From an uncultured Oscillospiraceae bacterium (GTDB lineage: Bacteria; Bacillota; Clostridia; Saccharofermentanales; UBA5734): 64,000 bases of DNA. A program made the translations under genes and the position numbers. The stretch spans positions 4,682 to 68,681 of the forward strand of contig CAZOHH010000002.1 in NCBI GenBank assembly GCA_964579735.1. The letters run 5' to 3'. The notes under the pieces are model-generated. The model was not told the origin of the DNA, searched no databases, and worked only from the letters and a program-made list of their open reading frames with translations. Shown piece after piece: positions 2,433 to 56,526 of the stretch (positions within the stretch are counted from its first letter, which is position 1; each line of letters opens with the position of its first letter).

Positions 2433-2457
2433 GCCTTACCCCCTCCCTATCGAATGT

Positions 2458-2976: not shown

Positions 2977-2990
2977 GCCGCCGTCGCCGA

Positions 2991-10539: not shown

Positions 10540-10574
10540 GGCACGCCGCCTCCCCTGTCGTCTAGATGAATCAA

Positions 10575-18407: not shown

Positions 18408-20368
18408 CTTCTTCGATTCCTCCTATTGTCGTTCATCTTGCCGTTTCCATCTTCTGGTCTATCCGTATGGGATGGAGGAGCGTTTCCTCCGGGTCTCAGC
18501 AGGCATTCGGGACCGAATCCGATCAGATCCTCGCGTCCAGCCCTGCGCAAAGCCTCCTCGACCAGAGGACGGTTGGCTGGCTTGGTGTATTGAAGCAGGG
18601 CGCGTTGCAGCACCTTCTCCCGTTCATCGGGGATGTGGACCTCCTCCAGGGTAAAAGGATCGAGGCCGGTCCAGTACATGCTGGTCGAAGCCGTACCGGG
18701 AGTCGGGTAGAAATCCTGGACCTGTTCGGGGACCACGCCTTGTTCGCGAAGCGCCTCCGCGAGAAGAATGGCGTCCGCCAGCGCGCTGCCGGGATGACCC
18801 GACATCAAGTATGGCACGAGGTACTGCTCCTTGCCGATCCTGCGGTTCATGTCGTAGAAGTCCCTGCGGAACTTCTCGTATGCTTCGGGACCGGGCTTCC
18901 CCATCAAGGCGAGGACACCGGGAGAGACATGCTCCGGAGCGACCTTGAGCTGGCCGCTCACGTGGTGTTCGCAGAGTTCCTCGAGGAAAGACGGATCCTT
19001 GTCCATCTGCAGGTAGTCGTAGCGGATTCCCGACCGGATGAAGACCTTCTTGACGCCCGGGAGGCATCGCACCTTGCGCAGGAGTTCGATGTATTCGGCG
19101 TGATCGGCGCGAAGGGATGGGCATGGCGTCGGAGCGAGGCAGCGCCGGGTCCTGCAGACGCCCCCCCTCCCCTGCATCTCGCAGGGCGTGGCGCGGAAAT
19201 TGGCCGTCGGGCCTCCTACATCGTGGATGTAGCCCTTGAAGTCGGGGTCATGCGTCATGGCTTCCGCTTCTCGTACGACGGAATCGGCGCTTCTGCGCTG
19301 GACCAGACGCCCCTGATGCAGGGTGATGGCGCAGAAGGAGCAACCGCCGAAGCAGCCTCTATGGCTCGTGATGCTGAAACGAACCTCCTCGAGCGACGGC
19401 ACGCCCCGCGGACCATACATGGGGTGGGCACGACGCTCATAGGGGAGCGCATGGACCTCATCCAGCTCCTTCATCCCCATTGGTTTCTGAGGTGGGTTCT
19501 GCACCAGGTAGCGTGCTCCGTGCGCCTGAACGAGCGTGCGGCCTTCCAAAGGGTCCTGCTCGTAGAACTGGTACCGGAAGGCGACGGAATAGGCAAGCGA
19601 ATCTCCGGCGGTCTCTTCGAAAGATGGAAGAAGCGTGTGACTTCCATCGTCGGGCAGGATACGGCCGAGAAGCTGCCTGCGCGTCTTCGAGGAGGCGTTG
19701 AGGCGGAAGTCCGCATTGGATTCGACGAATTCGGCAAGAGCTCTGGGCATCGACTCCGTCTTCACGAGGACACAGGTCCCGCGGAGGTTCACGATACGCT
19801 GGACCGATACTCCCTTTCGAAGAAGCTCTGCGATTTCAACGACGGGCTTCTCCCCCATTCCATAAACGAGGATGTCGGCTCTCGTGTCTTGTAGGATGCT
19901 GCGTCGGACTTCGCCCGCCCAGTAGTCATAATGGGCGAATCGGCGCAGGCTTCCCTCGACGCCGCCGAGAATGAGCGGCATCTTCTCTCCGAACTGGGTC
20001 CGGACCAGGTTGCAATAGCGGGTCAGGGCGCGATCGGGACGCCGGCCGGAAGCACCGCCCGGGGAGTAACGGTCGTCGCTGCGACGTCGCTTCGCCGCCG
20101 TGTAGTTGTCGACCATCGAATCGACCACGCCGGACGTGACCATGACGCCGAGTTTCGGCACGCCGAAGATCTTGAGACAATCCTTGACTTGAACATCGGG
20201 TTGGGCGAGAACGCCGACCCGGAAGCCGCGCGACTCCAGAACGCGCGTGATGACCGCGGTCCCGAAGGACGGATGGTCCACATAGGCATCGCCGGTGATG
20301 AACAGGAAATCGAGGGCATCCCAGCCTCTCGATTCCATCTCCTCTCGATTGACCGGGAGAAAAGGCAT
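18404..20368 (-). CDS. ygiQ: YgiQ-family radical SAM protein (UPF0313)
   Basis: [36 protein letters not shown] is the characteristic YgiQ N-terminus. Radical SAM cluster motif CFGGCSFC. Confidence 0.85.
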
Positions 20369-23322: not shown

Positions 23323-23818
23323 CTTCCGCTTTTCCTTCCCGGTCCGTCGCAGCGCTCTTGAAGCGCTTCATCTCCTCGACCGCGAGCTTGTCGCAGCGGT
23401 TGTTCCCTTCATTGTCGGCGTGCCCCTTGACCTTGATCCATTCGACGCGGTGCATGGAGGCGAGGCGGTCCAGCTCCATCCAGAGATCGATGTTGCTGAC
23501 AGGGTCTCCGCCCGAGTTCCGCCAACCGTTGCCCTTCCACTTTTCCAGCCACTTCAAACGGAAGGCGGAGACGAGATAGGCGCTGTCGCTGTATAGTCGG
23601 ACGGTACAGGGTCTTTTCAGCGCCTTCAGCGCCTCGAGTGCGGCAGTCAGTTCCATTCGGTTGTTCGTCGTTGCGGAAGTTCCTCCCACCAACGACTTCT
23701 CCACGTCACCGAACTTCAGCAAGGTAGCCCAGCCACCGGGGCCGGGATTGCCTGAGCAGGCACCGTCCGTATGGATTTCGATGGTCTGTTCCGATATGCG
23801 ATCGACCGGCTCCGTCAT
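23306..23818 (-). CDS. rnhA: Ribonuclease HI
   Basis: IHTDGACSGNPGPGGWA..NNRMEL..YSDSAY..KVKGHADNEGNNRCDKLA contains the DEDD catalytic residues. Overlaps the NUDIX gene by 17 nt and proC by 4 nt. Confidence 0.9.
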   Translation of the reverse strand: MTEPVDRISEQTIEIHTDGACSGNPGPGGWATLLKFGDVEKSLVGGTSATTNNRMELTAALEALKALKRPCTVRLYSDSAYLVSAFRLKWLEKWKGNGWRNSGGDPVSNIDLWMELDRLASMHRVEWIKVKGHADNEGNNRCDKLAVEEMKRFKSAATDREGKAEDDGTT

Positions 23819-24630
23819 GCTTCAGGTCCGGTACGGCCGGAGAGCTCGGCGGAGCGGCGGGCCGAGGCGGATACCGCTTCGATCGTGGCGGAACGGAACC
23901 CGCTTTTCTCCAGAACGCGGATTCCCTCGATTGTGGTTCCTCCAGGCGAGCAGACCTGGTCCTTGAGGACGGCGGGATGCGTGCCGGTTTCCAGTACCAT
24001 CGCGGCGGAACCCTTGACCATCGCGGCCGCCAGCCGCAGGGCGACGTCCCTGGCCAGGCCAAGGCGCACGCCGGCATCCGAAAGAGCCTCGATGAAGAGC
24101 ATCACATAGGCGGGGCCGCTGCCGGAAAGACCGGTCACGGCATCCATCAGCTTCTCTTCGACACGCAGGGCTATCCCGACGCTCTCGAAAAAGGAAAGGA
24201 CTTCCGATATATCGGCTTCGGCGGCTCCATCGAAGGAGATCGCAGTGGCCCCGCTGCCGACAAGGGCCGGGGTGTTGGGCATGGCCCGCGCGACCACGGG
24301 GGCGGAACCAGCCAGGTCACGCAGCTTCTGGAGAGAAACGCCCGCTGCGATCGAGACGAGCAGGGTTTCCGCTGTAAGGTTGGGGCGCAAGGCGACGAGG
24401 ACTTCGGGCAGGATCTGCGGTTTGACGGCGAGGACGACCATGCGGACCCCATCCACGGCTTCCGCCGCGCTATGGCACCGGGTGCAGCCGGTATCGTTGC
24501 AGAACGCCGCCGCTGTGGCGTCATTCGCATCGTAGACGAATAGAGAAGGAGCCGATCCGGAATGAACGGCAAGATACCCACGGGCCAGAGCCGACCCCAT
24601 GTTTCCGATTCCGATGAATGCGATGGACAT
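23815..24630 (-). CDS. proC: Pyrroline-5-carboxylate reductase
   Basis: MSIAFIGIGNMGSALARGY Rossmann N-terminus and the ..SPGGTTIEG motif. AGGAGGA SD before ATG 24630. The track ORF extension to 24831 reads through the antisense strand of tRNA-Trp and is rejected. Confidence 0.9.
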   Translation of the reverse strand: MSIAFIGIGNMGSALARGYLAVHSGSAPSLFVYDANDATAAAFCNDTGCTRCHSAAEAVDGVRMVVLAVKPQILPEVLVALRPNLTAETLLVSIAAGVSLQKLRDLAGSAPVVARAMPNTPALVGSGATAISFDGAAEADISEVLSFFESVGIALRVEEKLMDAVTGLSGSGPAYVMLFIEALSDAGVRLGLARDVALRLAAAMVKGSAAMVLETGTHPAVLKDQVCSPGGTTIEGIRVLEKSGFRSATIEAVSASARRSAELSGRTGPEA

Positions 24631-24706
24631 CGTTTCCTCCTGCTGGCCGAAAGTCTTGAAATGCAATGCCGTGGCGAGTCTGGACAAGGAAAATATAGCA
24701 TTGATG

Positions 24707-24736
24707 TTGACACAGCGCAAACCGACACGGTATACT
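24707..24736 (+). promoter_or_regulatory. tRNA-Trp promoter (-35 TTGACA, 18 bp, -10 TATACT)
   Basis: TTGACA 24707..24712 and TATACT 24731..24736, with 12 nt to the mature tRNA 5' end. Confidence 0.5.
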
Positions 24737-24748
24737 TCCACTGTTCTT

Positions 24749-24824
24749 AGGGGAGTAGCGCAATTGGTAGAGTAGCGGTCTCCAAAACCGTCGGTTGCAG
24801 GTTCGATCCCTGTCTCCCCTGCCA
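24749..24824 (+). tRNA. trnW: tRNA-Trp (anticodon CCA), CCA-encoded
   Basis: Hand-folded. Acceptor AGGGGAG/CTCCCCT, anticodon stem GCGGT/ACCGT with loop CTCCAAA, T-arm GCAGG-TTCGATC-CCTGT, discriminator G plus CCA. Confidence 0.9.
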
Positions 24825-24829
24825 GTACC

Positions 24830-24869
24830 AAGAAGGGACGTCCACCTGAAAGGGTGGACGTCCCTTCTT
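24830..24869. terminator. 17-bp perfect hairpin between tRNA-Trp (+) and lacZ (-)
   Basis: AAGAAGGGACGTCCACC-loop-GGTGGACGTCCCTTCTT. The A/T-rich stem ends could serve both directions, but there is no separate U-tract. Confidence 0.55.
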
Positions 24870-24891: not shown

Positions 24892-28142
<3,251 letters not shown>

Positions 28143-31108: not shown

Positions 31109-32281
31109 TCATTCGTAGAGATGTTCCTCTCCCCGATCGCGGATCACGACTCTGGTGCGGCCATCGATCGCGGCTTCTACCCGGCCGATGACCTTCGCCG
31201 CGACGCCATGCCGTGAAGCGGCGGAAACGACCGTCGAAGCATCGGACGGGTCGCAGTAGACCTCGAGACGATGCCCCATGTTGAACACCTTGTACATTTC
31301 GCTCGAGGCGATTCCACCAGACGATAGGATGGCTGCGAAAAGCGGTGGCGTTTCGAATAGGGAATCCTTGATGTAGAGAAGCGCATCCCCGAAGTCGCGG
31401 CACTTCGCAAGTCCCCCACCCGTGCAGTGGATCATTCCGTGAACGAGCCCCGGGCTCTGAACGAGCAGGTCGCGGACGATCGGCAGGTATGTTCGGGTCG
31501 GGGATAGAATCGCCTCGCCGACCGACATCTTCGAGCCGGGCAACCTGTCATGGATAAGGAATCGCCCGCAATAGGCATCGACTTCAGGAATCGTATTCGA
31601 AACCGTCTCAGGGTAGCGCAGAAGATAATCGTGACGAAGAAGCAGGTGCCGGGCCGCCGTGAGGCCGTTCGATCCCATGCCGGAATTCTCGCGGGTCTCG
31701 TAGGATGCCATACCCGTGGAGGATAGCCCGACGATGGCGTCTCCTGGGCGAATATCCGATGTGGTGATGACGTCTTTCCGTCTTATTCTCACAATCACCG
31801 TGGAATCCACGATCAGCGTCTGCACGAGGTCGCCGACATCAGCCGTCTCTCCGCCTGTCATTTCCACGTCGATTCCGAGTTCCGATAGACGAGCGATACA
31901 TTCGACATATCCGTCGATCACGGCAGCGATGCACGCCCCGTCGATCCGATGCGCGTTTCGACCGATCGTGTTCGAAAGATGGAATCCACCGACCGCGCCG
32001 ATGCAGGCGAGATCGTCGGTGTTCATCACGAGGGAATCCTGCGAGATGCCCTTGAACCATTCCCTGGAACCGGTCTCGCGGTACATCAGATAGGCGGCCG
32101 AGGCCTTGGTGCCGGCTCCATCGGCGTGGACGGCCGTGCAATACTCCTCGTCACCCGCCATATCCGGCAGCAGTTTGCAGAACGCTCCGGGGAAGAGCCC
32201 TCTGGACTGTCCCGCGACGGCCTTCTTCACGTCATCCTTGGTCGGGGAGACACCGCGACTGAGATAGGCTTCCGCCGCCAT
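31109..32281 (-). CDS. AIR synthase-related (PurM-like) protein, non-canonical
   Basis: 390 aa with a PurM-fold pattern (DGAGTK.., ..GGETA.., ..HCTGGG..) but an atypical N-terminus (YLSRGVSPTKDDVKKAV). No other pur genes nearby. Confidence 0.6.
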   Translation of the reverse strand: MAAEAYLSRGVSPTKDDVKKAVAGQSRGLFPGAFCKLLPDMAGDEEYCTAVHADGAGTKASAAYLMYRETGSREWFKGISQDSLVMNTDDLACIGAVGGFHLSNTIGRNAHRIDGACIAAVIDGYVECIARLSELGIDVEMTGGETADVGDLVQTLIVDSTVIVRIRRKDVITTSDIRPGDAIVGLSSTGMASYETRENSGMGSNGLTAARHLLLRHDYLLRYPETVSNTIPEVDAYCGRFLIHDRLPGSKMSVGEAILSPTRTYLPIVRDLLVQSPGLVHGMIHCTGGGLAKCRDFGDALLYIKDSLFETPPLFAAILSSGGIASSEMYKVFNMGHRLEVYCDPSDASTVVSAASRHGVAAKVIGRVEAAIDGRTRVVIRDRGEEHLYE

Positions 32282-32328: not shown

Positions 32329-32684
32329 CGCTTTCCGAGCGGACCTATAAGCCGGGTTCTGTCTTGAACAGCCATCTGTCTACGCCTGCTGTTTCCAGCA
32401 GGCTCCAGCCACCTCCCCGGGACCGGCGGGCAACCGATCGTCCCTCCACGGTGTTGCTCCAGGTGGGGTTTGCATAGCCGACGCGTCGCCGCGCCGCTGG
32501 TGAGCTCTTACCTCGCCTTTCCATCCTTACCGGCCCGAAGACCGGCGGTATCTCTCTGTTGCACTGTCCTTGAAGTCGCCTTCACCGGGAACTACCCGGC
32601 ACCTCTGCCCTATGGAGCCCGGACTTTCCTCGTTCGGGGCCTTTCGGCACACCGCCCGCGGCTGTCCAGTCCGCTCGGAAAGCC
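32329..32684 (-). ncRNA. rnpB: RNase P RNA, bacterial type A
   Basis: Minus strand holds the universal blocks GAGGAAAGTCCGGGCTCCATAGGGCAG, CAGTGCAACAGAGAG, GGTAAGAGCTCACC, ACCTGGAGCAA and ACAGAACCCGGCTTATAGG. P1 pairs CTTTCCGAGCGGAC (32682..32669) with GTCCGCTCGGAAAG (32344..32331). Ends are +/- a few nt. Confidence 0.9.
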
Positions 32685-32719: not shown

Positions 32720-33410
32720 TCCATTTCGCGCGATGCCTTACGGCAACCTGATCGACCGGTTCCGTGGAAGCCGACAGTCCACGGATCTCCTTCTCCAATC
32801 GACGCCGAAGGCTCGCGAGATAGGGCACCAGGGACTCCGGCCGTCGGTCGATGAGGTCGCGTCCGACCAGGAGTTCGAAGTCGTCGTAAGGTTTTGTCGG
32901 AGGGTCTCCCTCCCTGCCCGCTCGGCAGCGCAGGCAGGTATAGAAGCGCCCCGCGTCGAAGGCGACCTCTTCCCTTTCGATGAGGAAGGAGCGGTCGAGC
33001 AGGTAGGCCCGCAGATCAGGAAGGGACTTCATGGGCTGCAGCACGATCGCCGCCACCGTGCGGGCTGCGGCGAGATTCCGCTCGAGGATGTCCGCGGTCT
33101 CGAGCCCTCCTAGACCGGCGACCACGACGACGTCGTCGGAAAGGCAGTCCATTCCATCGAGACCGTCGGCTACCTCCGCGAAGACCCTGTCCGCGGTCCG
33201 GCTTTTGGCGATGTTGCGGCGTGCTACGGCCACGGGACCCTCACGGACATCACGGGCAATGGCGGTGATGCACCTTCCCACCTTGACGAGGTGAATGGGA
33301 AGGTAGGCGTGGTCCGACCCGACGTCAATGACCCGTCGGCATGTCGGAATCAAGCCGGCCACACCACTCAACCGCACGGAGAGCACGGGACCGGACCGAA
33401 CTGGATCCAT
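32691..33410 (-). CDS. trmK: tRNA (adenine22-N1)-methyltransferase TrmK-like SAM-dependent methyltransferase
   Basis: LSGVAGLIPTCRRVIDVGSDHAYLPIHL..VVAGLGG matches the TrmK/YqfN pattern. Sits downstream of sigA, as in Bacillus. Confidence 0.75.
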   Translation of the reverse strand: MDPVRSGPVLSVRLSGVAGLIPTCRRVIDVGSDHAYLPIHLVKVGRCITAIARDVREGPVAVARRNIAKSRTADRVFAEVADGLDGMDCLSDDVVVVAGLGGLETADILERNLAAARTVAAIVLQPMKSLPDLRAYLLDRSFLIEREEVAFDAGRFYTCLRCRAGREGDPPTKPYDDFELLVGRDLIDRRPESLVPYLASLRRRLEKEIRGLSASTEPVDQVAVRHRAKWIARIDTIDI

Positions 33411-33415
33411 CGGGA

Positions 33416-34513
<1,098 letters not shown>

Positions 34514-34525
34514 CCGGATTCCCTC

Positions 34526-36394
34526 CTATTTCGGGTCCTTCATTTCAGACAGTCTTCGTGTGATCGAGAGCAGTTCCTTCTTGAGCTCAGGTAGATCCGG
34601 AGGTGCCGGATCCGATATGATGCGCGATGCAATCTCCTCCCGTCGAGCGCGAAGGCGAAGCCGGCGTGTCCGGAGGAGATGTTGTTCGGCTGTCTGCGCG
34701 GCGTTTTCAAGGTCGGTCGGATCCCCTAGGGACATACAGGCCTTCGCGACCAGGGAGGGCATGGGATGACCAAGCAAGGTCAGGCCTTCGGAGAGGGAGA
34801 CGAGGTCGGAGACGCTGCATCTTCTCTGTAACGCGCGCTCGATCACCGTGGCGGCGAAGCCGCGCATGACGCCTTCCGTGAAGTCGTCGACGACCGGAGG
34901 AGCCTTCATCACGGCAAGCAGACCCGGGACGGTTCCGATCATGCAGACGAGAAGGAATTCCTCCTTGGATGCCTGAGCGGAAATGTTCGTTCCCTCGCTT
35001 GAGTCCTCGTCGGGCTCGAACGCGTCCTGCCGAGGCGTCACGGTCCTTGAAGCCAAGGTCGGTTGGCGGTCGGAAGCACGACCGCTCCTGCGACGATCCA
35101 CCTCCTGCATCACGCTGTCCGGAGAAATGCGGACGATGTCGGCTACCTTTGCGGCGTAGAGTTCGCGGACGATCGCATTGGGTTCGGCGGCGAGCACCTG
35201 ACAGGCATCGTCCTGATAGGAGAGGATGTCCAGGTTTCCATCCCGCGTGTTCTTCCGTTCGGTGACGAGAAGCCGGAAATCCATCAGCGGCAATGCCTTT
35301 TCGATCAGCGCCCGGAACAACTCTGCACCGTTCCGTCGGATGAACTCGTCCGGGTCCTTGCCTTCCGGAACCTGAAGGACGCTGACGCGGCACCCCTTCG
35401 CGGAGAGGATGTCGAGACCTCGGAGCGCTGCGGCCTGACCGGCCGCGTCGGAATCATAGGCTATGACGATGTCCTCCGCGAACTTGCGCAGGGTCGTGGC
35501 CTGGGCGTCGGTCATGGCGGTCCCGAGGGAGGCGACGGCATTGTCGACGCCGGCCTGGTGCATGGAAATGGCATCCATGTATCCTTCCACGATGATCAGA
35601 CGTTTCTGCCGGCTCATCTTGGCGATGTTGAGCGCGAAGAGATGTCGGCCTTTGGTGTAGATCGACGTTTCGGGAGAGTTGATGTATTTCGGATTGGAAT
35701 CATCGAGGACGCGGCCGCCGAATGCGACGATCCGACCCATGACATCGAGGATCGGAAACATGAGGCGTCCGCGGAAGAGGTCGATGAGGCCCCCCGTTCC
35801 GCGCTTCGTGAAGAGGCCGGATCTCGAGAGGAATTCGTCTTCGTAGCCCTTTGAACGGAGATGCTTCAGGAGTCCTTCCCATTCGTCCGGCGCGTATCCG
35901 AGACCAAACCGGCGAGCCGTAGAGGGCTGGATTTCACGCTTCTGCAGGTAATCACGCGCTCGTCCTCCCGCATCGCCCTGGAGCCCGTGGTAGAAATAGC
36001 GGGCAGCCTCGACGGACACCGCGTGGAGGGACTTGTTCAACTCCGAACGCCTGCGGTATTCGTCATCCTCGGGCTCGGGCAGCTTGATTCCAGCTCGGTC
36101 GGCGAGGATGCGGAGGGCATCGAGGTATCCCACTTTCTCGATGTCCTTGACGAAGCCGATCACGTCTCCGCCCTTGTTGCATCCGAAGCAGTAATAGATC
36201 TGCTTCGAGGGGGATACGCTGAAGGAGGACGTGTTCTCGCTGTGGAAAGGACAGAGTCCGAAGAAATTCTGCCCACTCTTCTTCTCGAGGTGGACATGCT
36301 GCTCCACCACGGCGACGATGTCGTTCCGCGCCTTTATCTCCTCGACGAGGCTTTCGGGAATCAAATGGCCCTGTGTCATCGGTTCCTGCCGCAT
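34526..36394 (-). CDS. dnaG: DNA primase
   Basis: Zinc ribbon CPFHSENTSSFSVSPSKQIYYCFGC and TOPRIM (IIVEGYMDAIS..). A second ATG at 36379 is also a possible start. Confidence 0.95.
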   Translation of the reverse strand: MRQEPMTQGHLIPESLVEEIKARNDIVAVVEQHVHLEKKSGQNFFGLCPFHSENTSSFSVSPSKQIYYCFGCNKGGDVIGFVKDIEKVGYLDALRILADRAGIKLPEPEDDEYRRRSELNKSLHAVSVEAARYFYHGLQGDAGGRARDYLQKREIQPSTARRFGLGYAPDEWEGLLKHLRSKGYEDEFLSRSGLFTKRGTGGLIDLFRGRLMFPILDVMGRIVAFGGRVLDDSNPKYINSPETSIYTKGRHLFALNIAKMSRQKRLIIVEGYMDAISMHQAGVDNAVASLGTAMTDAQATTLRKFAEDIVIAYDSDAAGQAAALRGLDILSAKGCRVSVLQVPEGKDPDEFIRRNGAELFRALIEKALPLMDFRLLVTERKNTRDGNLDILSYQDDACQVLAAEPNAIVRELYAAKVADIVRISPDSVMQEVDRRRSGRASDRQPTLASRTVTPRQDAFEPDEDSSEGTNISAQASKEEFLLVCMIGTVPGLLAVMKAPPVVDDFTEGVMRGFAATVIERALQRRCSVSDLVSLSEGLTLLGHPMPSLVAKACMSLGDPTDLENAAQTAEQHLLRTRRLRLRARREEIASRIISDPAPPDLPELKKELLSITRRLSEMKDPK

Positions 36395-36487
36395 CTCTTC
36401 ATATGGTAGATTTCGATGGCAGTGGAACGGATTCCTGCCTGCGTTCGAAAATATTCTCGATGATTCATCAAGGGAATGTCCATGAAC

Positions 36488-37867
36488 CTAGGAGTCCGTC
36501 GAGGTCTCCGCCTTGGCGGCCTTGAGCCAAAGAGCGCATTCGAGGCGTTTCTTCTGCAGCTCGCAACCGATGTCGTATAGACCGTCGATTCGCCCACTCG
36601 CATGGTATGCGTTCGCGGCACAACCGCCGCTGCAGAAGTAGCGGGCCCAGCAGGTCCGGCATTCGTCCTTGTCCGGGACGAGCAGCTTGCGGAAGCGTGC
36701 GCGCAGTTCCGGGTCCAGATGGTATTCCGTATCTCCCGATGCTTCATGGACGTTGCCCATCCGGAACTCAGGCATGCCGACGAACTGGTGGCATGGATAG
36801 ATGTCGCCTTCGGGCGTGACCGCGATGTACTCGGCACCTGCACCGCATCCCTTCAGGCGTTTGTACGCGCATGGACCACCTTCGAGGTCGATCTCGAAGT
36901 GGAAGAAGCGGAGGTTGCTCCCCTTTTGGAACGAATCGAGGCAATGGAGCGCGAGTCGCTCGTACTCCTCGAGGATCGCAGGCAGGTCTTCGTTGCGAAT
37001 AGCGTAATCGGCTTCCGGTGGGGCGACCACCGGCTCGAGGGAGACGGGTCCGATTCCGAGCGATTCGATGTGAGCGACGTCCGCTGCGAAATCGAGGTTG
37101 TGACGCGTGAAGGTCCCGCGGACGTAGTAGGACCGGTCTCCGCGCTTTTCCGCGAACTCCAGGATCCGTTTCGCCACCAGGTCATAGGATCCGCGCCCTC
37201 CCGCGAAGGGGCGCATGCGGTCGTGGGCTTCGGGTCGTCCATCGAGACTGAGCACGAGGTTGTCCATGTGGGCATCGAGGAAAGCGATGCGGGTCTCGTC
37301 GAGCAGCAGCGCGTTGGTCGTGAGGGTCAAGCGGATATGGAGGCCTGTCTCCTTCGACCGCAGCTCGCAATAGGCCGTCAGGTCCTCGACCACTCCGAAA
37401 TTGAGCAGGGGTTCCCCGCCAAAGAAGTCGATGTCGAGGTTGCGGCGGCCCTTCGATTCGCGGATCAGGAACTCGACGGCGTCCTTTCCCGTCTGGAGGT
37501 CCAGGTGGATGCGGCGGCCCGTGCCGAAGTCGCCCGTTCCGGCGAAGCAGTAGGTGCAGCGGAGATTGCAGTCGTGGCTGACATGGAGGCACATCGCCTT
37601 GATGGGGGAATCCTCGGGGTAGAGGTCCTCGACCACGGGTACCGCGGTTTCGGCAAAGAGGGTCCCGTCGGCGATCAGGCGGTCGATCGCGTCGGCCGTC
37701 GACTCCGCATCGGGGTGGTCTGGAAGTGCAGCCGGTTCAGGGCGGAGACCACCGTTCGAAAGGTATACGGCCAGAACCTCCGCGCCGAAATCGTCGAATT
37801 CATGGAGCGAGCCGCTTTCCACATCAAAAGCGAGGTGACGGCCATGCAGACTGAATGAGTGGACCAC
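36488..37867 (-). CDS. scfB: SCIFF peptide maturase, radical SAM/SPASM (thioether cross-link-forming)
   Basis: CNLRCTYC radical-SAM motif and a C-terminal SPASM Cys cluster (..YPCHQF..CRTCWARYFCSGGCAANA). N-terminus VVHSFSLHGRHLAFDVESGSLHEFD resembles ScfB. GTG 37867 is preceded by AGGAGG with 4-nt spacing. Directly follows scfA. Confidence 0.85.
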   Translation of the reverse strand: MVHSFSLHGRHLAFDVESGSLHEFDDFGAEVLAVYLSNGGLRPEPAALPDHPDAESTADAIDRLIADGTLFAETAVPVVEDLYPEDSPIKAMCLHVSHDCNLRCTYCFAGTGDFGTGRRIHLDLQTGKDAVEFLIRESKGRRNLDIDFFGGEPLLNFGVVEDLTAYCELRSKETGLHIRLTLTTNALLLDETRIAFLDAHMDNLVLSLDGRPEAHDRMRPFAGGRGSYDLVAKRILEFAEKRGDRSYYVRGTFTRHNLDFAADVAHIESLGIGPVSLEPVVAPPEADYAIRNEDLPAILEEYERLALHCLDSFQKGSNLRFFHFEIDLEGGPCAYKRLKGCGAGAEYIAVTPEGDIYPCHQFVGMPEFRMGNVHEASGDTEYHLDPELRARFRKLLVPDKDECRTCWARYFCSGGCAANAYHASGRIDGLYDIGCELQKKRLECALWLKAAKAETSTDS

Positions 37868-37885
37868 GGGACCTCCTATGGACCT

Positions 37886-37925
37886 AAAGATAAGGAGCGG
37901 ACGGCGCAAGACGCGCATCCGCTCC
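37886..37925 (-). terminator. Hairpin plus U-rich tract between scfA and scfB (attenuator candidate)
   Basis: Minus strand GGAGCGGA-[TGCGCGTCTTGCGCCG]-TCCGCTCC followed by TTATCTTT. Lies 54 nt after the scfA stop and 19 nt before the scfB GTG. Confidence 0.55.
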
Positions 37926-37978
37926 CCGGTTTTCCGATTCCTCCTGCCGAAGTCTGCCAGAGGGGTGACGGTAGAAAA

Positions 37979-38125
37979 CTACTTCGCTACCCTTTCGCAC
38001 TTCTGGTTGGCGACGGTGCAGCTGGTCTTGCAGGCGGACTGGCACGAGGTCTGGCATTCGCCGCAGGCCTTGCCGTCCAGAGGGACGCGGATGGAGGAAG
38101 TCGAAATGGTCTTCACGTGTTCCAT
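37979..38125 (-). CDS. scfA: SCIFF (six cysteines in forty-five residues) RiPP precursor peptide, 48 aa
   Basis: Hand translation: MEHVKTISTSSIRVPLDGKACGECQTSCQSACKTSCTVANQKCERVAK. It has six Cys, the core GECQTSCQSACKTSCTVANQKCE, and a GGGAGG SD upstream. Below the ORF-track length cutoff. Confidence 0.9.
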   Translation of the reverse strand: MEHVKTISTSSIRVPLDGKACGECQTSCQSACKTSCTVANQKCERVAK

Positions 38126-38149
38126 TGGGGCACCTCCCAGGAATTCGTT

Positions 38150-38476
38150 CTAGTCGGAGATCGGCTTGATCACGGAAGCGATCGCGCTCTTCTTGACTGT
38201 CACGAGGGTTTTCGCAGCACTGGTCGTGATCGTGATCTCATCGTCCTTGATATTGTAGACCTTGCCGAGGATGCCGCCGATGGTGACGCAGTCGTCTCCG
38301 ACGACCATGGAGGAGATCAGGGCCTTCAGGGCCTTCTCCTTCTTCCTCTGGGGCCTGATCAGAACGAGCCACATCACGCCGAACATCGCGGCGAAGGGGA
38401 GAACCATGCCGAGCAGAGCGGACGTGGGGTCTGCCGCCGGGTCGGTCGTCAGGGCGAAACGTACGAGTTCATGCAT
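38150..38476 (-). CDS. yajC: Preprotein translocase subunit YajC
   Basis: 108 aa with a single TM followed by LIRPQRKKEKALKALISSMVVGDDCVTIGGILGKV, the YajC signature. AGGAGGA SD before ATG 38476. The rest of track ORF 38150..39295 overlaps tgt out of frame and is rejected. Confidence 0.9.
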   Translation of the reverse strand: MHELVRFALTTDPAADPTSALLGMVLPFAAMFGVMWLVLIRPQRKKEKALKALISSMVVGDDCVTIGGILGKVYNIKDDEITITTSAAKTLVTVKKSAIASVIKPISD

Positions 38477-38546
38477 TGGGTCAGTTCCTCCTTGTGAAGG
38501 GTGCCGGGACAGGCACCGCGGAAACGGCATCCAAGCCGTCCAACGC

Positions 38547-38576
38547 ATAATACCATCGCAGGTCGGAGGAGTGCAA
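38547..38576 (-). promoter_or_regulatory. Putative yajC-scfA-scfB promoter (-35 TTGCAC, 18 bp, TGgTATTAT extended -10)
   Basis: TTGCAC 38576..38571 and TATTAT 38552..38547, in the 128-nt tgt-yajC gap. Confidence 0.5.
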
Positions 38577-38604
38577 GCCAAATGTATGGAGGGTGGGTCG
38601 CGGA

Positions 38605-40868
<2,264 letters not shown>

Positions 40869-40888
40869 GGCATAATATATATCATGGT

Positions 40889-40918
40889 TTGACGGTGAAG
40901 TATAGCGGATGGTATCAT
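40889..40918 (+). promoter_or_regulatory. dapA-dapB promoter (-35 TTGACG, 18 bp, TGgTATCAT extended -10)
   Basis: TTGACG 40889..40894 and TATCAT 40913..40918. Leaves a ~70-nt leader containing the CCGG-TTCG-CCGG tetraloop hairpin. Confidence 0.5.
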
Positions 40919-40994
40919 CACAAAAAGCCAAAGAGCGCTTGCAGAGAGCCTTTCCGGTTCGCCGGTGGGCAAGCACGCCGAGGAGGTCCAGACC

Positions 40995-41873
40995 ATGAAG
41001 AAAGCCGTATTCTCCGGTGCCGCCGTCGCCATCGTCACCCCGTTCTGTGAATCCGGGGTCGATTATGATCGTCTCGGCGCACTCTGTGAAATGCACGTCG
41101 CCAGCGGGACCGACGCGATCGTCGTCGCTGGCACGACGGGAGAAGCATCCACGATGCCCGACGACGAGCATCTCGCCGTCATCGCTTATGTCGTGAAGAG
41201 GATCGCCGGCCGGATTCCCGTGATCGCCGGCACTGGCAGCAACGACACCGCTCACGGCATCCAGCTCTGCAAGGAAGCCGAGCAGCTTGGAGCGGATGCT
41301 CTCCTCCTCGTCACACCCTACTACAACAAAGCCTCCCAGAAAGGTCTCTACCTGCATTTCAAGGCCATGGCCGACGCGGTCCGCATCCCCATCATCCTCT
41401 ACAACGTACCAGGCCGGACGGGCGTCAACATCTCCCCCGAAACCGTCGCGAACCTCTCGCACATCGACAACATCGTCGGCCTCAAGGAGTGCAACACCAC
41501 CCAAGCGCCCGAAGTGGCCGCACTGTGTGGAGACCGTATCTTCCTCTACTCCGGCGAGGACGGTCAGGTGCTCCCCATCCTGTCCCTCGGCGGAAGGGGC
41601 GTCATCTCCGTGATGGCCAACATCATCCCCTCCGATACGCATCGCATGGTCGCCTCCTACCTTTCCGGGGACCATGCCGAAGCCCTTCGTCTTCAGCTGA
41701 AGACCGTTCCGTTGGTCAAGGCCCTTTTCAGCGATATCAACCCGATCCCGGTCAAGGCCGCGTTGAATCTTCTCGGACACGATGTCGGGGAATGCCGCCT
41801 GCCCCTCTGTTCGATGAGCGATGCCGCGCTGTCCGCCCTACGCGAAGCCCTCGTCGCCTACGGGCTCCTTTGA
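40995..41873 (+). CDS. dapA: 4-hydroxy-tetrahydrodipicolinate synthase
   Basis: MKKAVFSGAAVAIVTPF..VVAGTTGEASTM..TPYYNK..YNVPGRTG. GAGGAGG SD before ATG 40995. Confidence 0.95.
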   Translation: MKKAVFSGAAVAIVTPFCESGVDYDRLGALCEMHVASGTDAIVVAGTTGEASTMPDDEHLAVIAYVVKRIAGRIPVIAGTGSNDTAHGIQLCKEAEQLGADALLLVTPYYNKASQKGLYLHFKAMADAVRIPIILYNVPGRTGVNISPETVANLSHIDNIVGLKECNTTQAPEVAALCGDRIFLYSGEDGQVLPILSLGGRGVISVMANIIPSDTHRMVASYLSGDHAEALRLQLKTVPLVKALFSDINPIPVKAALNLLGHDVGECRLPLCSMSDAALSALREALVAYGLL

Positions 41874-42652
41874 TGGCGACCGAGGCGGCCTCGCCCGTGA
41901 GAATCCTGCTGGTAGGATGCAACGGCCGGATGGGCAGGACCATCAGCACTTTGTCCGCTTCCGGCGATCCCATCCGTATCGTCGGTGGGGTCGATTCGAA
42001 CGTGTCCGTCCTCTTCGATTATCCAGTCTTCGCCTCCTTCGAAGCATGCGATGTCGTTCCAGATGTCATCATCGACTTCTCGAACCCCACCGCCCTCCCC
42101 TCCCTGATCGATTTCGCATTTCATCATTCCCTGCCCATGGTCGTCGCGACGACGGGTCTCGAAGCGTCGCATCGAGAAGCCTTGAAGGTCGCCTCGGATC
42201 GGATTCCGGTATTCGTATCCGCCAATATGTCGCTCGGCATCAATCTTCTTCTCGATCTTGCTGCCAAAGCCGCGTCGGTCCTCTACCCCGAATTCGACAT
42301 CGAGCTGATCGAAGCGCATCACAACCAGAAACTCGATGCACCGTCCGGAACCGCGCTGATGATCGCGGACCGTGTGAACGAAACTCTGGACGGCCGCCTT
42401 CGCTATGTATATGACCGCCATTCCACTCGAGCGAAACGGGAGGGGAACGAACTCGGCATCCATGCGATCCGAGGCGGCAGCATCGTCGGCGAACACACCC
42501 TCCTCTTCGCTGGACCGGACGAGGTGGTCGAGATCCGCCACAGCGCACAATCTCGCGACGTCTTCGCACATGGAGCCATGAAGGCGGCCCGCTTCCTGGT
42601 GGGAAAGACTCCCGGCATGTACAGCATGAAGGACCTGATCGCCGCGTTATGA
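41873..42652 (+). CDS. dapB: 4-hydroxy-tetrahydrodipicolinate reductase
   Basis: VRILLVGCNGRMGR..EAHHNQKLDAPSGTAL. ATG overlaps the dapA stop (TGATG). The track ORF start 41489 lies inside dapA and is rejected. Confidence 0.93.
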   Translation: MATEAASPVRILLVGCNGRMGRTISTLSASGDPIRIVGGVDSNVSVLFDYPVFASFEACDVVPDVIIDFSNPTALPSLIDFAFHHSLPMVVATTGLEASHREALKVASDRIPVFVSANMSLGINLLLDLAAKAASVLYPEFDIELIEAHHNQKLDAPSGTALMIADRVNETLDGRLRYVYDRHSTRAKREGNELGIHAIRGGSIVGEHTLLFAGPDEVVEIRHSAQSRDVFAHGAMKAARFLVGKTPGMYSMKDLIAAL

Positions 42653-47541: not shown

Positions 47542-48686
47542 AGAACACCCCGTCCTAGCCTATATCTCCCCTTCTCCTTCCTTATCTCTCCTGATAACTC
47601 GAGCTCGAGCAGCAGCATGACCGTTTCTCGAATCCCCAGGCCCAATCTTTCCGAAATCGCGTTGGCATCCAGAAACTCCCCGACAAGCAGGGACAGGACT
47701 CCGGATGCAAAATCCACGATCTTCTCGCAATCCGGAGTGCACGATTCCACATCGCCGAGCATCTTCAACATTCTAAGATTGGAAGGAAGACGCTCGAGAA
47801 TGTCCTCGGCGTCGGTCAAGACGTAGGCCCCTTCCTTCAGCAATTGGTTGGTACCGTCGCTTCGCTCATTGAAGATGCTTCCCGGCACAGCAAATACATC
47901 GCGGCCCTGATCGAGAGCGCAACCTGCCGTAATCATCGTTCCGCTGCGCGAGGCCGCTTCGATGACGGCGGTTGCATCGCATAGACCACTGATGATCCGG
48001 TTTCTTGCCGGGAACAGGTTTGCCTTTGGAGGTGTGCCAGGCGGTTGTTCGCTGAGAAGGACTCCATGACTCATGATACGTTCGGCCAATCCACGATTCT
48101 CTTCTGGATAGATGATGTCTATTCCGCTGGCAAGTACCGCGACCGTGGAACCTCCAGCTTCGAGAGCAGCGGCATGTGCGCAGGTATCGATTCCGCGGGC
48201 GAGACCACTGACGACCAGAATTCCTCTTTTCGTCAGATCGCGAGAAATCCTCTTCGCCGCTTCCTCACCGTAGGGAGTAGGTTGCCTCGTTCCTATGACG
48301 GCCACACTGGGGGTGTCCAGCAGGGACAGATGAGTATCGAGTGCGGTTCTATAGAAGAGCACGGGGGGTGGCGAAGGGATATGAAGAAGTCGTTCGGGAT
48401 ACCCCTCGTCCAGATACCATACCGCATACGCATTGATTGCCTGCAGTTGCTCCGCTGCATGGATGGCGGCGTCACGGCTCCTACCCCCGTCGAGGAAGCG
48501 GTTGAAGGATTCGATGGTTTCGGGAGGCCCTCCGACCGCTTCGCGAAGGCGTTTATCCGATGCATCGAAGATCGCATCCGGTCCTCCTACGAAGGATGTC
48601 ATCCGTTTGACCGCTGCGCCACCGATCTTCGCTCTGGATATCATCGTCGAAATCCAGATTCGAGCGGCGAGTCGTTGTTCGCTCAT
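47538..48686 (-). CDS. dprA: DNA processing protein DprA (Smf)
   Basis: VAVIGTRQPTPYG..VVSGLARGIDTCAH..NRIISGL. ATG 48686 overlaps the comM stop (ATGA). The track extension to 49175 overlaps comM and is rejected. Confidence 0.9.
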   Translation of the reverse strand: MSEQRLAARIWISTMISRAKIGGAAVKRMTSFVGGPDAIFDASDKRLREAVGGPPETIESFNRFLDGGRSRDAAIHAAEQLQAINAYAVWYLDEGYPERLLHIPSPPPVLFYRTALDTHLSLLDTPSVAVIGTRQPTPYGEEAAKRISRDLTKRGILVVSGLARGIDTCAHAAALEAGGSTVAVLASGIDIIYPEENRGLAERIMSHGVLLSEQPPGTPPKANLFPARNRIISGLCDATAVIEAASRSGTMITAGCALDQGRDVFAVPGSIFNERSDGTNQLLKEGAYVLTDAEDILERLPSNLRMLKMLGDVESCTPDCEKIVDFASGVLSLLVGEFLDANAISERLGLGIRETVMLLLELELSGEIRKEKGRYRLGRGVL

Positions 48687-50317
48687 GAGAAGTCTCCATC
48701 CTTCTCCATGGACCGGAAAGCGAATGCTTCGAGAATCTGATTCCGCGAGACCGCTGCCGTTCCATCCAGATCCGCTATGGTCCGTGCGGCACGCAGCATC
48801 TTGTGGAAACCTCTTACACTGAGACCCATTCGTTCCGCTTCCATTGCCGCGGCTGATAGAAGGTCGGGTCCTGCACCAAGTGTCGACTCCAATTCCGCCC
48901 CTGGGATTCGTGAATTCCACCAGGAGCCGAAACGTTCGCCCTTGTTCCGCACTTTCTGGACGGACCATGCTTTTCGGATCCTTTCCTTCATCTGGTCGAT
49001 GCGAAGGTCGCTCGAATGTCTTGCCGTCGCCGCCATTGAAGTGGCGTCCACCTTCCGGATCTCCACTTGAAGGTCCATTCGGTCCATCAGCGGCCCACCA
49101 ATGCGCGAGAGGTACGACCGAATCGCACCTTGACTGCAACGGCAGCCGCCATGCGGCTCGAAGTTCTGTCCGCATGGGCAGGGGTTGGATGCGGCGACCA
49201 GTACGAATTCAGATGGAAAGGTCATATGCACCGCGTTGCGGGACAATCGGACGACACCCTCCTCGCACGGAGTGCGCAGCGTCTCGAGGACATGAGGTTG
49301 GAACTCCGCCACCTCGTCAAGAAAGAGCACCCCCTTATGCGCCAAGGTCGCTTCGCCAGGTTTCGGTCTTCCGCCACCGCCAACGAGTGCCGCCGCCGTC
49401 GCTGTATGATGCGGTGCGCGGAAAGGTCGATCCCTCAACAGACCCACGCTGGGTGGAAGAAGCCCCGCCGCGCTGTAGATCCTGGTGACTTCCATCGCCT
49501 CGTCTTGCTCCAGCACCGGGAGAAGGAACGACAAGAGGGACGCAAGAACGGTCTTCCCCGAACCAGGACTCCCGACCATGAGCAGGTTGTGCATGCCTGC
49601 GGCGGCTATCTCCACGGACCGCAATGCGAAACCTTGCCCCTGGATCACCGGTATGCTTCGGGGCAAGCCTCGTTCCGCTGGAGGAGCCTTCGAAGAGTGC
49701 AGGACTTCACCATCGAAATGTCGACCGGACCAGACATCGATCGCCTCCTTCAAGGTTCGTACCGGGTAGACGGCGATGCCCGCGATCGCTTCCGCCTCGA
49801 GCCGGTTTCCCATTGGGACGATCAATCCCGTCACGCCATTCGATTTAGCCATGCCGGCTCTGCAGATGGCGCCATTCACCGACCTCACCTCTCCAAGAAG
49901 TGAAAGTTCTCCGAAGGACAGCACCTCGCCCTGTTCCATCATCTTCGGGATCTGACCTGATGCGGCCAGCAAGGCAAGCGCCAGGGGAAGGTCGAACCCA
50001 GTTCCTTCCTTGTGTATCCAGGCTGGAGCGAAGTTCGCCGTGATCCTGCCATTCGGGAACTCATATCCGCTGTTGCGCACGGCAGCACGGACCCTCTCCC
50101 TCGATTCCTTCACATCGGAGCCGCATAGGCCGACGATTTCGAATGCCGGAATCCCATTCTGAATCGACACTTCGATCCGGACCAGGATCCCTTCGATTCC
50201 ATAGAGCCCGCTTCCATAGGTTTCCGCGTACCGCCCAGCCAATCGGTCACCCCTTTCTTTCCTGCAAAGATAGGATAGGTCCGGAATCCTTCCTGTGGAC
50301 ACACCGGATACCGACAA
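48683..50317 (-). CDS. comM: Mg-chelatase-like AAA+ ATPase ComM/YifB
   Basis: GIEGILVRIEVSIQNGIPAFEIVGL..VKESRERVRAAV, Walker A GSPGSGKT, LFLDEVAEF. The true start may be a downstream TTG near 50220 (GAAAGGGGTGA SD); uncertain. Confidence 0.85.
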   Translation of the reverse strand: MSVSGVSTGRIPDLSYLCRKERGDRLAGRYAETYGSGLYGIEGILVRIEVSIQNGIPAFEIVGLCGSDVKESRERVRAAVRNSGYEFPNGRITANFAPAWIHKEGTGFDLPLALALLAASGQIPKMMEQGEVLSFGELSLLGEVRSVNGAICRAGMAKSNGVTGLIVPMGNRLEAEAIAGIAVYPVRTLKEAIDVWSGRHFDGEVLHSSKAPPAERGLPRSIPVIQGQGFALRSVEIAAAGMHNLLMVGSPGSGKTVLASLLSFLLPVLEQDEAMEVTRIYSAAGLLPPSVGLLRDRPFRAPHHTATAAALVGGGGRPKPGEATLAHKGVLFLDEVAEFQPHVLETLRTPCEEGVVRLSRNAVHMTFPSEFVLVAASNPCPCGQNFEPHGGCRCSQGAIRSYLSRIGGPLMDRMDLQVEIRKVDATSMAATARHSSDLRIDQMKERIRKAWSVQKVRNKGERFGSWWNSRIPGAELESTLGAGPDLLSAAAMEAERMGLSVRGFHKMLRAARTIADLDGTAAVSRNQILEAFAFRSMEKDGDFS

Positions 50318-54942: not shown

Positions 54943-55839
54943 TTACCTTCCGAGGTCCAGCATGAGGAGACGGAAGCCGCCGTCCGCGGACTCGGACACG
55001 AAAGTCTCCGCGTCGACGAGTCCTAGGGTCTTGAGTCTGTCCCCGATGTCCTCCGCGTCGATTATCTCAATACGGAAGGGGGAAGCGCAAGTGGACAGCA
55101 CCTTGGAAATCCGATCCGCGCGGTCCTGGATCGTATCCGAAGGGAGAAGCAGGAAAACGGCAAGTGAACCGTCGGATTTCTGATAAACGCGGAAGACCCT
55201 ATGATCGCCCAGCTCTCCTGAATCGACGAGGGTTCTGTAAGTGGACTGGATATCGGAATCGGCCTTGAGCGAGGAAATGGTGCCGACCTCCGAAACCGTG
55301 TAGATCAGCTTGGGCGTGGTGCAGGATTCTGGTGCGAAACCTGTCGCATCCTCCATCGCATCGGATACAGCAGCTTGGCTCACCGCATTAGGATCGTTCG
55401 AAGCACCCTTGGTGTCCGTCTGGTTCGCGGTCGGAGTAAAGAACCCGGGGGTTCCCGTATTCGGTAGGATTCCCCCCGCGACCAAGGCGGCGAACAATCC
55501 GAAAGCGAGGAAGACAGCAAAGCCTGCGGCAAGCGGTGCGTATCTCCTCGTGGAGGAACGAAGGAAGAATGGAATGGGGCGAACCAGAGATGTTTCGACG
55601 GAATCCTGTTGGATGCGGGCGATGATGCGCTCGGCAAGATCGATCGAAGGCGTCGCACCAGAACGTTCCGCCAATACCGGGGTCATAGCAGCGACGAACG
55701 CCTCGTGTTTCTTCATGTAGGCTGCACAGGAAATGCAGGTACTCAAATGGAGCAAAGGAGAGTTCCCGGAATCATCTTCCGGCATTCTTCCCTTTCGTTC
55801 CATCAGCTCTTCCCTACAACGTCTGCATGCGGTCTTCAT
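54943..55839 (-). CDS. Zinc-finger (zf-HC2/ZAS-type) anti-sigma factor, single-pass membrane protein
   Basis: H-x3-C-x2-C (HLSTCISC) near the N-terminus, TM YAPLAAGFAVFLAFGLFAALVAGGIL, and a ~170-aa extracytoplasmic domain I do not recognise. Directly follows the ECF sigma gene. Confidence 0.7.
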   Translation of the reverse strand: MKTACRRCREELMERKGRMPEDDSGNSPLLHLSTCISCAAYMKKHEAFVAAMTPVLAERSGATPSIDLAERIIARIQQDSVETSLVRPIPFFLRSSTRRYAPLAAGFAVFLAFGLFAALVAGGILPNTGTPGFFTPTANQTDTKGASNDPNAVSQAAVSDAMEDATGFAPESCTTPKLIYTVSEVGTISSLKADSDIQSTYRTLVDSGELGDHRVFRVYQKSDGSLAVFLLLPSDTIQDRADRISKVLSTCASPFRIEIIDAEDIGDRLKTLGLVDAETFVSESADGGFRLLMLDLGR

Positions 55840-56517: not shown

Positions 56518-56526
56518 ATTATACCA
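56518..56526 (-). promoter_or_regulatory. Extended -10 (TGgTATAAT) upstream of the ECF sigma gene
   Basis: Minus strand TGGTATAAT lies 11 nt before ATG 56506. No recognisable -35. Confidence 0.4.

Follow-up and report, generated by a model that had tools for sequence, protein, structure and literature searches.

A SCIFF ranthipeptide gene pair, very probably canonical, in the queA-tgt-yajC housekeeping string of an uncultured Clostridia member

We describe a pair of minus-strand genes in a 64,000-nt stretch of DNA (here called the window; contig CAZOHH010000002.1 of assembly GCA_964579735.1) from an uncultured member of the Clostridia with roughly 59% G+C. The pair consists of scfA, a 48-codon precursor gene, and scfB, which encodes a radical S-adenosylmethionine (SAM)/SPASM maturase, and is very probably a canonical SCIFF ranthipeptide system set in a queA-tgt-yajC housekeeping string. 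The testable defining features of the SCIFF precursor and ScfB families were found in the two genes, the RRE domain of ScfB being predicted from an alignment. An earlier interpretation made from the nucleotides without database searches (the sequence-only reading) had pointed to such a pair at positions 36488-38576, a range bounded by the scfB stop codon and the first base of a promoter -35 hexamer, and had correctly added that it represents no new class. The pair is a known system and no new kind; we rate it as already known because standard pipelines name both families and because the exact peptide is already present in public gene calls.

The precursor gene scfA and the maturase gene scfB

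The scfA gene occupies 37979..38125 on the minus strand and encodes, from an ATG start, 48 residues followed by a stop codon. The translation is MEHVKTISTSSIRVPLDGKACGECQTSCQSACKTSCTVANQKCERVAK, the same as that given in the sequence-only reading, and as claimed there it contains exactly six Cys residues (positions 21, 24, 28, 32, 36, and 43) and is preceded by a GGGAGG Shine-Dalgarno (SD) sequence, which we read at 38133..38138 (38138..38133 in the direction of transcription), 7 nt ahead of the ATG. Our list of open reading frames (ORFs) was made with a minimum length of 30 residues; a 60-residue minimum would omit this gene. The peptide scored 73.6 bits against TIGR03973 (“six-cysteine ranthipeptide SCIFF”; cutoff of 50, E = 8.5e-21) and 76.2 bits against PF13165 (cutoff of 27, E = 1.8e-21), with the SCIFF model match spanning model positions 2-43. 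The family assignment thus holds over the curated cutoffs of both NCBIfam/TIGRFAM and Pfam. The peptide also has the family format, a length of about 45-48 residues with the six Cys placed C-terminally, and its core does not differ from the consensus CG.CQ.SCQSACKTSCTV.NQ.CE, the fixed positions of which are at least 90% conserved among 76 peptides. With the boundary transferred from the CteA/Tte1186a numbering in the literature, residues 1-18 (38125..38072) would form the leader and residues 19-48 (38071..37982) the core.

Long spurious ORFs are abundant on both strands of the window, including antisense across the scfA locus, and a 48-codon ORF in such G+C-rich DNA might be an untranslated chance product. 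We consider this vanishingly improbable for scfA, given hidden Markov model (HMM) E-values of about 1e-21 and a good SD sequence at the correct spacing. When the small ORFs of related loci were compared codon by codon with the window as the reference (74 loci with the core motif), the 23-codon core displayed 785 synonymous and 93 non-synonymous codon changes, and third codon positions held 841 of the 1,064 base differences, a pattern indicating a translated gene under strong purifying selection. The small ORF is therefore conserved, and its core hardly varies among the 76 peptides. Moreover, the exact peptide has been called, with a PF13165 match, on six independent public metagenome contigs; on all six it comes after a YajC of 107-108 residues, and where the contigs are long enough it is followed by a radical-SAM gene, complete on two contigs with 459 residues.

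The second gene, scfB, starts 111 nt downstream of scfA on the same strand. The ORF finder called it at 36488..37918 (minus strand) as a protein of 476 residues that contains SHDCNLRCTYCFAG and a SPASM domain, but the ATG at 37918 is probably wrong and the start is most likely the GTG at 37867, giving a gene at 36488..37867 and a protein of 459 residues. The support for this start is of several kinds: alignment to the HMM and to CteB starts only at residue 18/19 of the 476-residue ORF, i.e., the CteB alignment and the TIGR03974 match begin at the first residue after the GTG start; codon 18 is a GTG with an AGGAGG SD sequence ahead of it (37872..37877, read from the sequence, 4 nt from the GTG); public calls with the identical peptide, in which scfB is 99-100% identical, give 459 residues; and the ATG at 37918 sits in the stem of a strong hairpin described below. 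Because the match runs from the first residue, the N-terminal 90 or so residues of ScfB are, on the basis of the alignment, homologous to the RRE region of CteB.

ScfB passed the equivalog model TIGR03974 (“thioether cross-link-forming SCIFF peptide maturase”) with 542.8 bits against a cutoff of 425, in agreement with the ScfB-type assignment of the sequence-only reading; precursor and maturase models (TIGR03973 and TIGR03974), whose use had been proposed there, are thus both exceeded. Matches to PF13186 and TIGR04085 also exceed their cutoffs. A rival view, in which this enzyme does not mature the small ORF product but is a PapB-type enzyme, an anaerobic sulfatase-maturating enzyme (anSME), a QhpD, or an orphan resembling ScfB that acts elsewhere, is hardly conceivable and in our view effectively refuted already. 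The families concerned are homologous, each of them reaches a significant E-value with ScfB, and the second-best PDB matches of ScfB are anSME structures. Yet each rival model stays far under its curated cutoff (NF040492, the not_ScfB exception, 429 bits against 855; QhpD, 254 against 453; the PapB model NF047865, 233.7 against 340; the anSME model TIGR03942, 94.1 against 349.45), and only the ScfB model is passed. The protein therefore does not group with the anaerobic sulfatase maturases; it is such a grouping, with a sulfatase partner elsewhere, that the sequence-only reading had named as fatal to its proposal. Of the 80 related genome loci, 79 carry the cognate SCIFF gene immediately ahead of the maturase gene, the ScfA peptide is devoid of PapA-type CX3D repeats, and there is no sulfatase or qhp gene among the surveyed window ORFs. 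CcpM and other enzyme assignments were also tried for scfB and rejected, with scores under the cutoffs.

The closest solved structure is CteB (PDB 5wgg/5why), with E = 8e-140 over residues 18-468 of the long ORF and residues 6-451 of the chain; the global alignment of the two proteins gives 48% identity. All ten Cys that serve as Fe-S ligands in CteB, according to the list in PMC10177961, align with Cys in the window ScfB. The CX3CX2C motif (C100-N-L-R-C104-T-Y-C107; codons 37570..37547, minus strand) aligns with C104/C108/C111 of CteB. Within 36847..36563 (minus strand), the auxiliary (Aux) I residues C341/C359/C416 align with C344/C362/C413 and the Aux II residues C403/C406/C412/C435 with C400/C403/C409/C432. 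ScfB also keeps the three-Cys Aux I set, which leaves an open coordination site. Cluster binding by the window protein is predicted from these alignments.

Genomic setting and transcription signals

We fetched the 80 best genome loci with the ScfB protein and labelled them L001 onward; all are from Clostridia or Bacillota metagenome-assembled genomes or isolates, and the closest relative is an uncultured Clostridiales metagenome-assembled genome with 80% identity in ScfB and 92% in RpoD. In the window, the pair is flanked upstream by queA, tgt (TIGR00430, 563 bits), and yajC and downstream by dnaG and rpoD. The yajC gene (38150..38476, minus strand), which encodes the 108-residue accessory subunit of the Sec translocon (TIGR00739, 73 bits against 44.2; PF02699, 85.6 against 28.2), is the first gene of the probable yajC-scfA-scfB unit and ends only 24 nt ahead of scfA. 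Among the closest genome relatives, L006-L009 and L011 have the complete order queA-tgt-yajC-scfA-scfB-dnaG-rpoD and L010 and L012-L016 have most of it, and the yajC-scfA-scfB arrangement, for which a neighborhood comparison had been suggested, recurs in related Clostridia.

Upstream context was counted in the 68 loci, and downstream context in the 65 loci, that had enough flanking sequence. A yajC gene on the same strand within 2.5 kb upstream was found in 45 of 68 loci. It abuts scfA with nothing between, as in the window, in 11; in 31, yajC is followed by a gene for a TIGR04086 membrane protein of 130-150 residues and then by scfA; in 3 more, yajC lies within 2.5 kb and TIGR04086 is not directly upstream. 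The TIGR04086 gene stands directly upstream of scfA, with yajC not seen, in 6 loci, which brings the total with this gene directly upstream to 37 of 68; neither gene is upstream in the remaining 17. Examples of the TIGR04086 gene are L025:5154-5576, L026:5352-5753, L030:2121-2543, and L033:1862-2290. Searches of the 64-kb window with tblastn and with an HMM built from the 130-150-residue gap proteins gave no credible TIGR04086 homologue, and neither the window nor the loci of its nearest relatives (L006-L013, L015, and L016), nor L019, have the gene at this place. Downstream of scfB we found secD or secDF in 14 of 65 loci (one with recJ as well), recJ only in 3, proC in 9, dnaG in 10, and other genes in 29; recJ normally comes after secDF.

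The SCIFF pair is thus typically lodged in an ancient queA-tgt-yajC-secDF-recJ housekeeping cluster, of which the window carries a lineage-specific variant. The common clostridial form, yajC-TIGR04086-scfA-scfB, often followed by secD/secDF or recJ, shares with the window the yajC gene upstream on the same strand, a terminator-like hairpin after scfA, and the housekeeping setting; unlike it, the window and its closest relatives are without TIGR04086 and have dnaG-rpoD in place of secDF downstream. The leaders differ as well: the window reads SSIRVPLDGKA-CGEC where ..LK.S..KGG-CGEC is common in most relatives. As a side observation, several SCIFF leaders of the TIGR04086-less lineage (L007, L008, L009, L011, L013, L015, and L016) have an extra Cys, for example ..ACIK.. 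or ..PCSGK.., which the window leader does not have, and in this lineage Ala or Thr precedes the first core Cys, with Gly in most other loci. In the open literature we found no paper naming SCIFF together with yajC, or TIGR04086 at all, the key primary papers lying outside the search; no claim of novelty is made for the context observations on yajC linkage, TIGR04086, hairpin, and promoter.

Ahead of yajC is a sigma-A-type promoter motif, TTGCAC-N15-TGgTATTAT (38547..38576, minus strand), identified by pattern match and conservation; the sequence-only reading had noted a sigma-A-like promoter at this place, and the motif is indeed there, read in the direction of transcription at 38576..38547. 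Its -35 hexamer TTGCAC (38576..38571) is followed by an 18-nt spacer, and the extended -10 element TGgTATTAT spans 38555..38547. The whole pattern has this sole match in the window, with 0 expected by chance. In the alignment of the region upstream of yajC with L001 and L006, the two closest loci available for it, the promoter block stands out as conserved within a spacer that has diverged elsewhere. More distant relatives (L008, L009, L013, L015, and L016) share its arrangement, with TTGnnn and TGnTAnnAT separated by about 17-18 nt, but not its sequence. Promoter activity before yajC is predicted on these grounds. The element TGNTAWWAT occurs three times in the 64 kb, each time on the minus strand and just upstream of a gene. 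The other two matches, at 9801..9809 before smc and at 56518..56526 before a gene for an extracytoplasmic function (ECF) sigma factor, are directly upstream of minus-strand genes, which suggests that this extended -10 promoter type may be used genome-wide.

The presumed 5′ untranslated region of yajC (38477..38546, minus strand) contains two small hairpins between the promoter and the yajC SD sequence, the first being GACGGC..GCCGTT with TTCC behind it and the second GGTGCC..GGCACC. L001 and L006 retain both hairpins, with a single T-A to C-G exchange in the second stem that looks compensatory, an observation from three sequences only that carries no functional evidence. A search of 36300..38700 against Rfam (E <= 1) returned no match, i.e., no known riboswitch or leader in the yajC 5′ untranslated region or the scfA-scfB spacer.

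The spacer between scfA and scfB contains a terminator-like element at 37885..37927 (minus strand), made of a stem-loop (37927..37892) of 16 pairs with one bulge and a U-rich tail, UUAUCUUUA. The hairpin folds at -27.4 kcal/mol (z = -3.2), and 0 of 200 shuffles were as stable. A generic promoter/terminator scan of 33000..42000 did not list it because of the bulge in the stem. With a simple detector that requires one hairpin at least as stable as -10 kcal/mol together with a U-rich tract, overlap with the 3′ arm allowed, such an element was found in 66 of 78 scfA-scfB spacers of related loci, compared to 6 of 75 equal-length stretches upstream of scfA and 11 of 234 shuffled spacers; a stricter version, before overlap of the U-tract with the 3′ arm was allowed, found it in 34 of 78 loci. 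From lineage to lineage the hairpins have unrelated sequences, and it is their position and shape that are conserved. We read the element, from its sequence features, as an intrinsic terminator or attenuator. The earlier suggestion of a single yajC-scfA-scfB transcription unit is therefore kept in part: it is probably one unit, but an attenuated one, since a terminator-like hairpin with a U-tract, conserved in position, parts scfA from scfB. After scfB and before dnaG lies a further, weak terminator-like stem-loop (36456..36472, minus strand) from a pattern scan; it has 3 G-C pairs only, and the scan found 6 such sites in the region with 6.1 expected from shuffles, so it counts as weak evidence.

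Predicted chemistry and possible roles of the product

SCIFF peptides are ranthipeptides (PMC8326336, PMC8172795). The enzymes Tte1186 and CteB each make a single thioether from Cys32, the fourth Cys, with Thr37 as the acceptor in vitro and Thr34, linked S-C(gamma), upon co-expression in E. coli (PMC8326336, PMC8172795). The sequence-only reading had named thioether cross-links in the plural; in characterised SCIFFs only one has been demonstrated. In CteB, the leader (residues -18 to -1) is bound by the RRE domain, to which it adds a beta-strand, and the Aux I cluster has an open iron able to take a peptide Cys (PMC6231123, PMC10177961). The window peptide has the numbering of CteA, i.e., a leader of residues 1-18, the first Cys at core position 3, Cys32 (codon 38032..38030), and the candidate acceptors Thr34 (38026..38024) and Thr37 (38017..38015), all on the minus strand. 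With this numbering and with all enzyme ligands kept, the same reaction is the best prediction for the window pair; the ranthipeptide thioether is predicted, its donor and both possible acceptors being present, and the chemical steps as well as the cross-link position are carried over from homologues.

In the mechanism we propose, the extended -10 sigma-A promoter (38576..38547) would drive yajC, and scfA, 24 nt on, would be co-transcribed. Most transcripts would end at, or be stabilised by, the hairpin and U-tract (37927..37885), and read-through past it would yield scfB, translated from the GTG at 37867. Limited read-through would mean that the precursor is made in excess of the enzyme, an arrangement familiar from other RiPP operons (RiPP, ribosomally synthesized and posttranslationally modified peptide). 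The ScfA leader (residues 1-18; motif M-x-H-[IV]-K-T-[IL]) would dock in beta-strand form onto the predicted RRE domain at the N terminus of ScfB; at the CX3CX2C cluster, SAM would be cleaved to a 5′-deoxyadenosyl radical, which would take a hydrogen from a Thr side chain; and the Cys32 thiolate, at the open iron of Aux I, may then form one S-C(gamma) thioether to Thr37 or Thr34.

Several points weigh against this account. The two published studies disagree on the acceptor, Thr37 versus Thr34 (PMC8326336, PMC8172795). The -35 hexamer is poor, and because it matches at 3/6 positions only, the yajC promoter was not listed by the generic scan of 33000..42000; no terminator was found between tgt and yajC, so that read-through from queA-tgt into yajC may occur. 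The hairpin could be an RNA-stability or processing element and no terminator. Finally, the spacing between the scfB SD sequence and the GTG is short, at 4 nt.

Among characterized systems, the nearest is CteA/CteB (thermocellin) of Clostridium thermocellum (PDB 5WGG/5WHY). The full-length alignment with CteB covers the RRE region and the radical-SAM and SPASM domains, and CteA shares with ScfA the 18-residue leader, Cys21/24/28/32/36/43, and Thr34 and Thr37; the window differs in a diverged leader sequence and in a locus where scfA directly follows yajC and dnaG-rpoD come after scfB. The in vitro characterization of SCIFFs began with Tte1186a/Tte1186 of Caldanaerobacter subterraneus, which belongs to the same family, with a Cys32-Thr37 thioether, three [4Fe-4S] clusters, and a ligand pattern as in the window, a relation that we draw from the shared family models and the literature. 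The ranthipeptide pair PapA/PapB (freyrasin) of Paenibacillus polymyxa is more distant. Its maturase is a homologous radical-SAM/SPASM enzyme (the 233.7-bit match above) that also forms thioethers at a non-alpha carbon, but its product has six Cys-X3-Asp S-C(beta) links, whereas the window peptide is without CX3D and one link, to a Thr C(gamma), is expected. QhpD and anSME share the SPASM radical-SAM architecture and act on side-chain beta or gamma carbons; their substrates, unlike a small RiPP precursor, are proteins (QhpC and sulfatases), and in the window, where the ORFs were surveyed, no partner genes are nearby and the scores are far under the cutoffs.

As to function, we consider it most likely that the ScfA product is a conserved peptide with a regulatory or physiological role and no antibiotic. 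The literature describes the family as almost universal in Clostridia, with no species having more than one copy; no immunity or export genes accompany the pair, and the core is almost invariant. The statement in the sequence-only reading that the physiological role of SCIFF is unknown is partly outdated, a quorum-sensing or regulatory role having been reported in 2020, as relayed by two reviews (PMC8102284, PMC8326336). According to these reviews, Chen et al. (2020) observed quorum-sensing and sporulation-related effects in SCIFF knock-outs; disruption of the precursor and its radical-SAM gene in C. beijerinckii lowered sporulation genes and raised agr, and the reviews themselves give the function as “quorum sensing” (PMC8102284, PMC8326336). 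A 2026 preprint extends the quorum-sensing idea to one conserved ranthipeptide group. Still, the proposal that the product is a secreted quorum-sensing signal, as in solventogenic clostridia, strikes us as possible but on the unlikely side, being at odds with the invariant core and the missing receptor and exporter. No exporter, leader peptidase, receptor kinase, or regulator is linked to the pair here or in the 80 related loci, and several orders of Clostridia share the 23-residue core with hardly any variation, whereas peptide pheromones, such as those of the agr and ComX-type systems, usually diversify between species. In addition, no sporulation link could be made in C. ljungdahlii, as stated in a review citing Chen et al. 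(2020).

An antimicrobial, sactipeptide-like bacteriocin is brought to mind by subtilosin, thuricin, and ruminococcin C, thioether-bridged radical-SAM peptides that are antimicrobial. We regard this as very unlikely, for there are no immunity or ABC-transporter genes among the surveyed window ORFs and the near-universal distribution, the single copy at most per species, and the invariant core speak against it; the literature itself counts that distribution against an antimicrobial role. A further idea, which concerns the SCIFF family as a whole and extends beyond the window, is that SCIFF is neither pheromone nor antibiotic but stays with the cell and has a housekeeping role, in connection with the membrane or with the YajC/SecDF branch of the Sec system; it could, for example, be a small metal- or cluster-binding or cofactor-like peptide. 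We hold this idea to be speculative and rather doubtful, and leave it open on several grounds: scfA would be co-transcribed with yajC behind a shared promoter, with the hairpin closing a yajC-scfA unit; yajC, TIGR04086, secD/secDF, and recJ are linked to the pair across related loci; and the core is almost invariant across orders, as expected of cofactor precursors (pyrroloquinoline quinone, mycofactocin) and unlike signals. A conserved physiological or regulatory peptide stays our preferred description of the product.

Other genes of the window and meaning of the pair

When the called ORFs of the whole window were surveyed against Pfam/NCBIfam, housekeeping functions only came up, including ffh, ftsY, smc, recA, murJ, folD, ftsK, pnp, rpsO, trmK, dapA/dapB, topA, polA, coaE, ispH-rpsA, and scpA/scpB, as well as a class I (Trp/Tyr-type) aminoacyl-tRNA synthetase; among these ORFs there was no exporter, peptidase, immunity, or second RiPP gene. 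The earlier claim that scfA-scfB is the only peptide-modification system of the window is accordingly true for RiPPs. It does not extend to radical-SAM modification in general, since RimO, which methylthiolates ribosomal protein S12, is encoded at 11561..12958 (minus strand; TIGR01125, 463 bits against 357), and scfB is thus not the only gene here for a radical-SAM enzyme that modifies proteins. A YgiQ-family radical-SAM protein is encoded at 18404..20368 (minus strand; TIGR03904, 800 bits).

Many long shadow ORFs occur in this G+C-rich window. Four antisense ORFs over the scfA-scfB locus (37859..38497, 37878..38153, 36602..37858, and 38262..38669, all plus strand) gave no Pfam match and were taken as shadows of G+C-rich coding DNA. 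In the longest queA ORF (39777..41780, minus strand, 667 residues), about 300 codons at the N-terminal end are a false extension and overlap dapA (40965..41873, plus strand), the real start being at about 40868. In the ORF at 56598..59429 (minus strand, 943 residues), the IspH/ribosomal protein S1 model (NF000907, 659 bits) matches from residue 269 on, and the unassigned first 268 or so residues may stem from a start placed too far upstream or form an additional fused domain. The proC ORF (23815..24831, minus strand) has a Pfam match that starts at residue 69, and a tRNA (24749..24821, plus strand) lies inside its over-extended 5′ end. RNase P RNA class A (266 bits) was found at 32332..32677 (minus strand) between trmK and the gene at 31109..32281. 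A GH2 beta-galactosidase gene (LacZ-like, 1,072 residues; 24892..28110, minus strand) stands alone among the housekeeping genes, between proC and pnp. Four ORFs of 198-298 residues with coding-like third-position G+C (54943..55839, minus strand, and 2320..3150, 9973..10569, and 48045..48740, plus strand) had no match in Pfam; the first three were also searched against NCBIfam, again with no match. The ORF at 54943..55839 lies directly downstream of the ECF sigma factor gene (55880..56506) and could encode its anti-sigma factor.

For the window itself, the pair matters little, as a routine member of a curated family. The refinements made here (the GTG start, the terminator-like hairpin, the yajC promoter, and the loss of TIGR04086) are at the level of annotation or of the family and are no discovery about the window. 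Their practical value lies in annotation: ORFs of fewer than 60 codons should be kept in Clostridia, scfB should start at the GTG at 37867, and the intergenic hairpin should be marked. The yajC linkage, the TIGR04086 partner and its loss here, and the conserved hairpin give no answer to the wider question about the family, but they sharpen it: why a near-invariant six-Cys peptide and a radical-SAM enzyme sit in the yajC/secDF cluster of many Clostridia.

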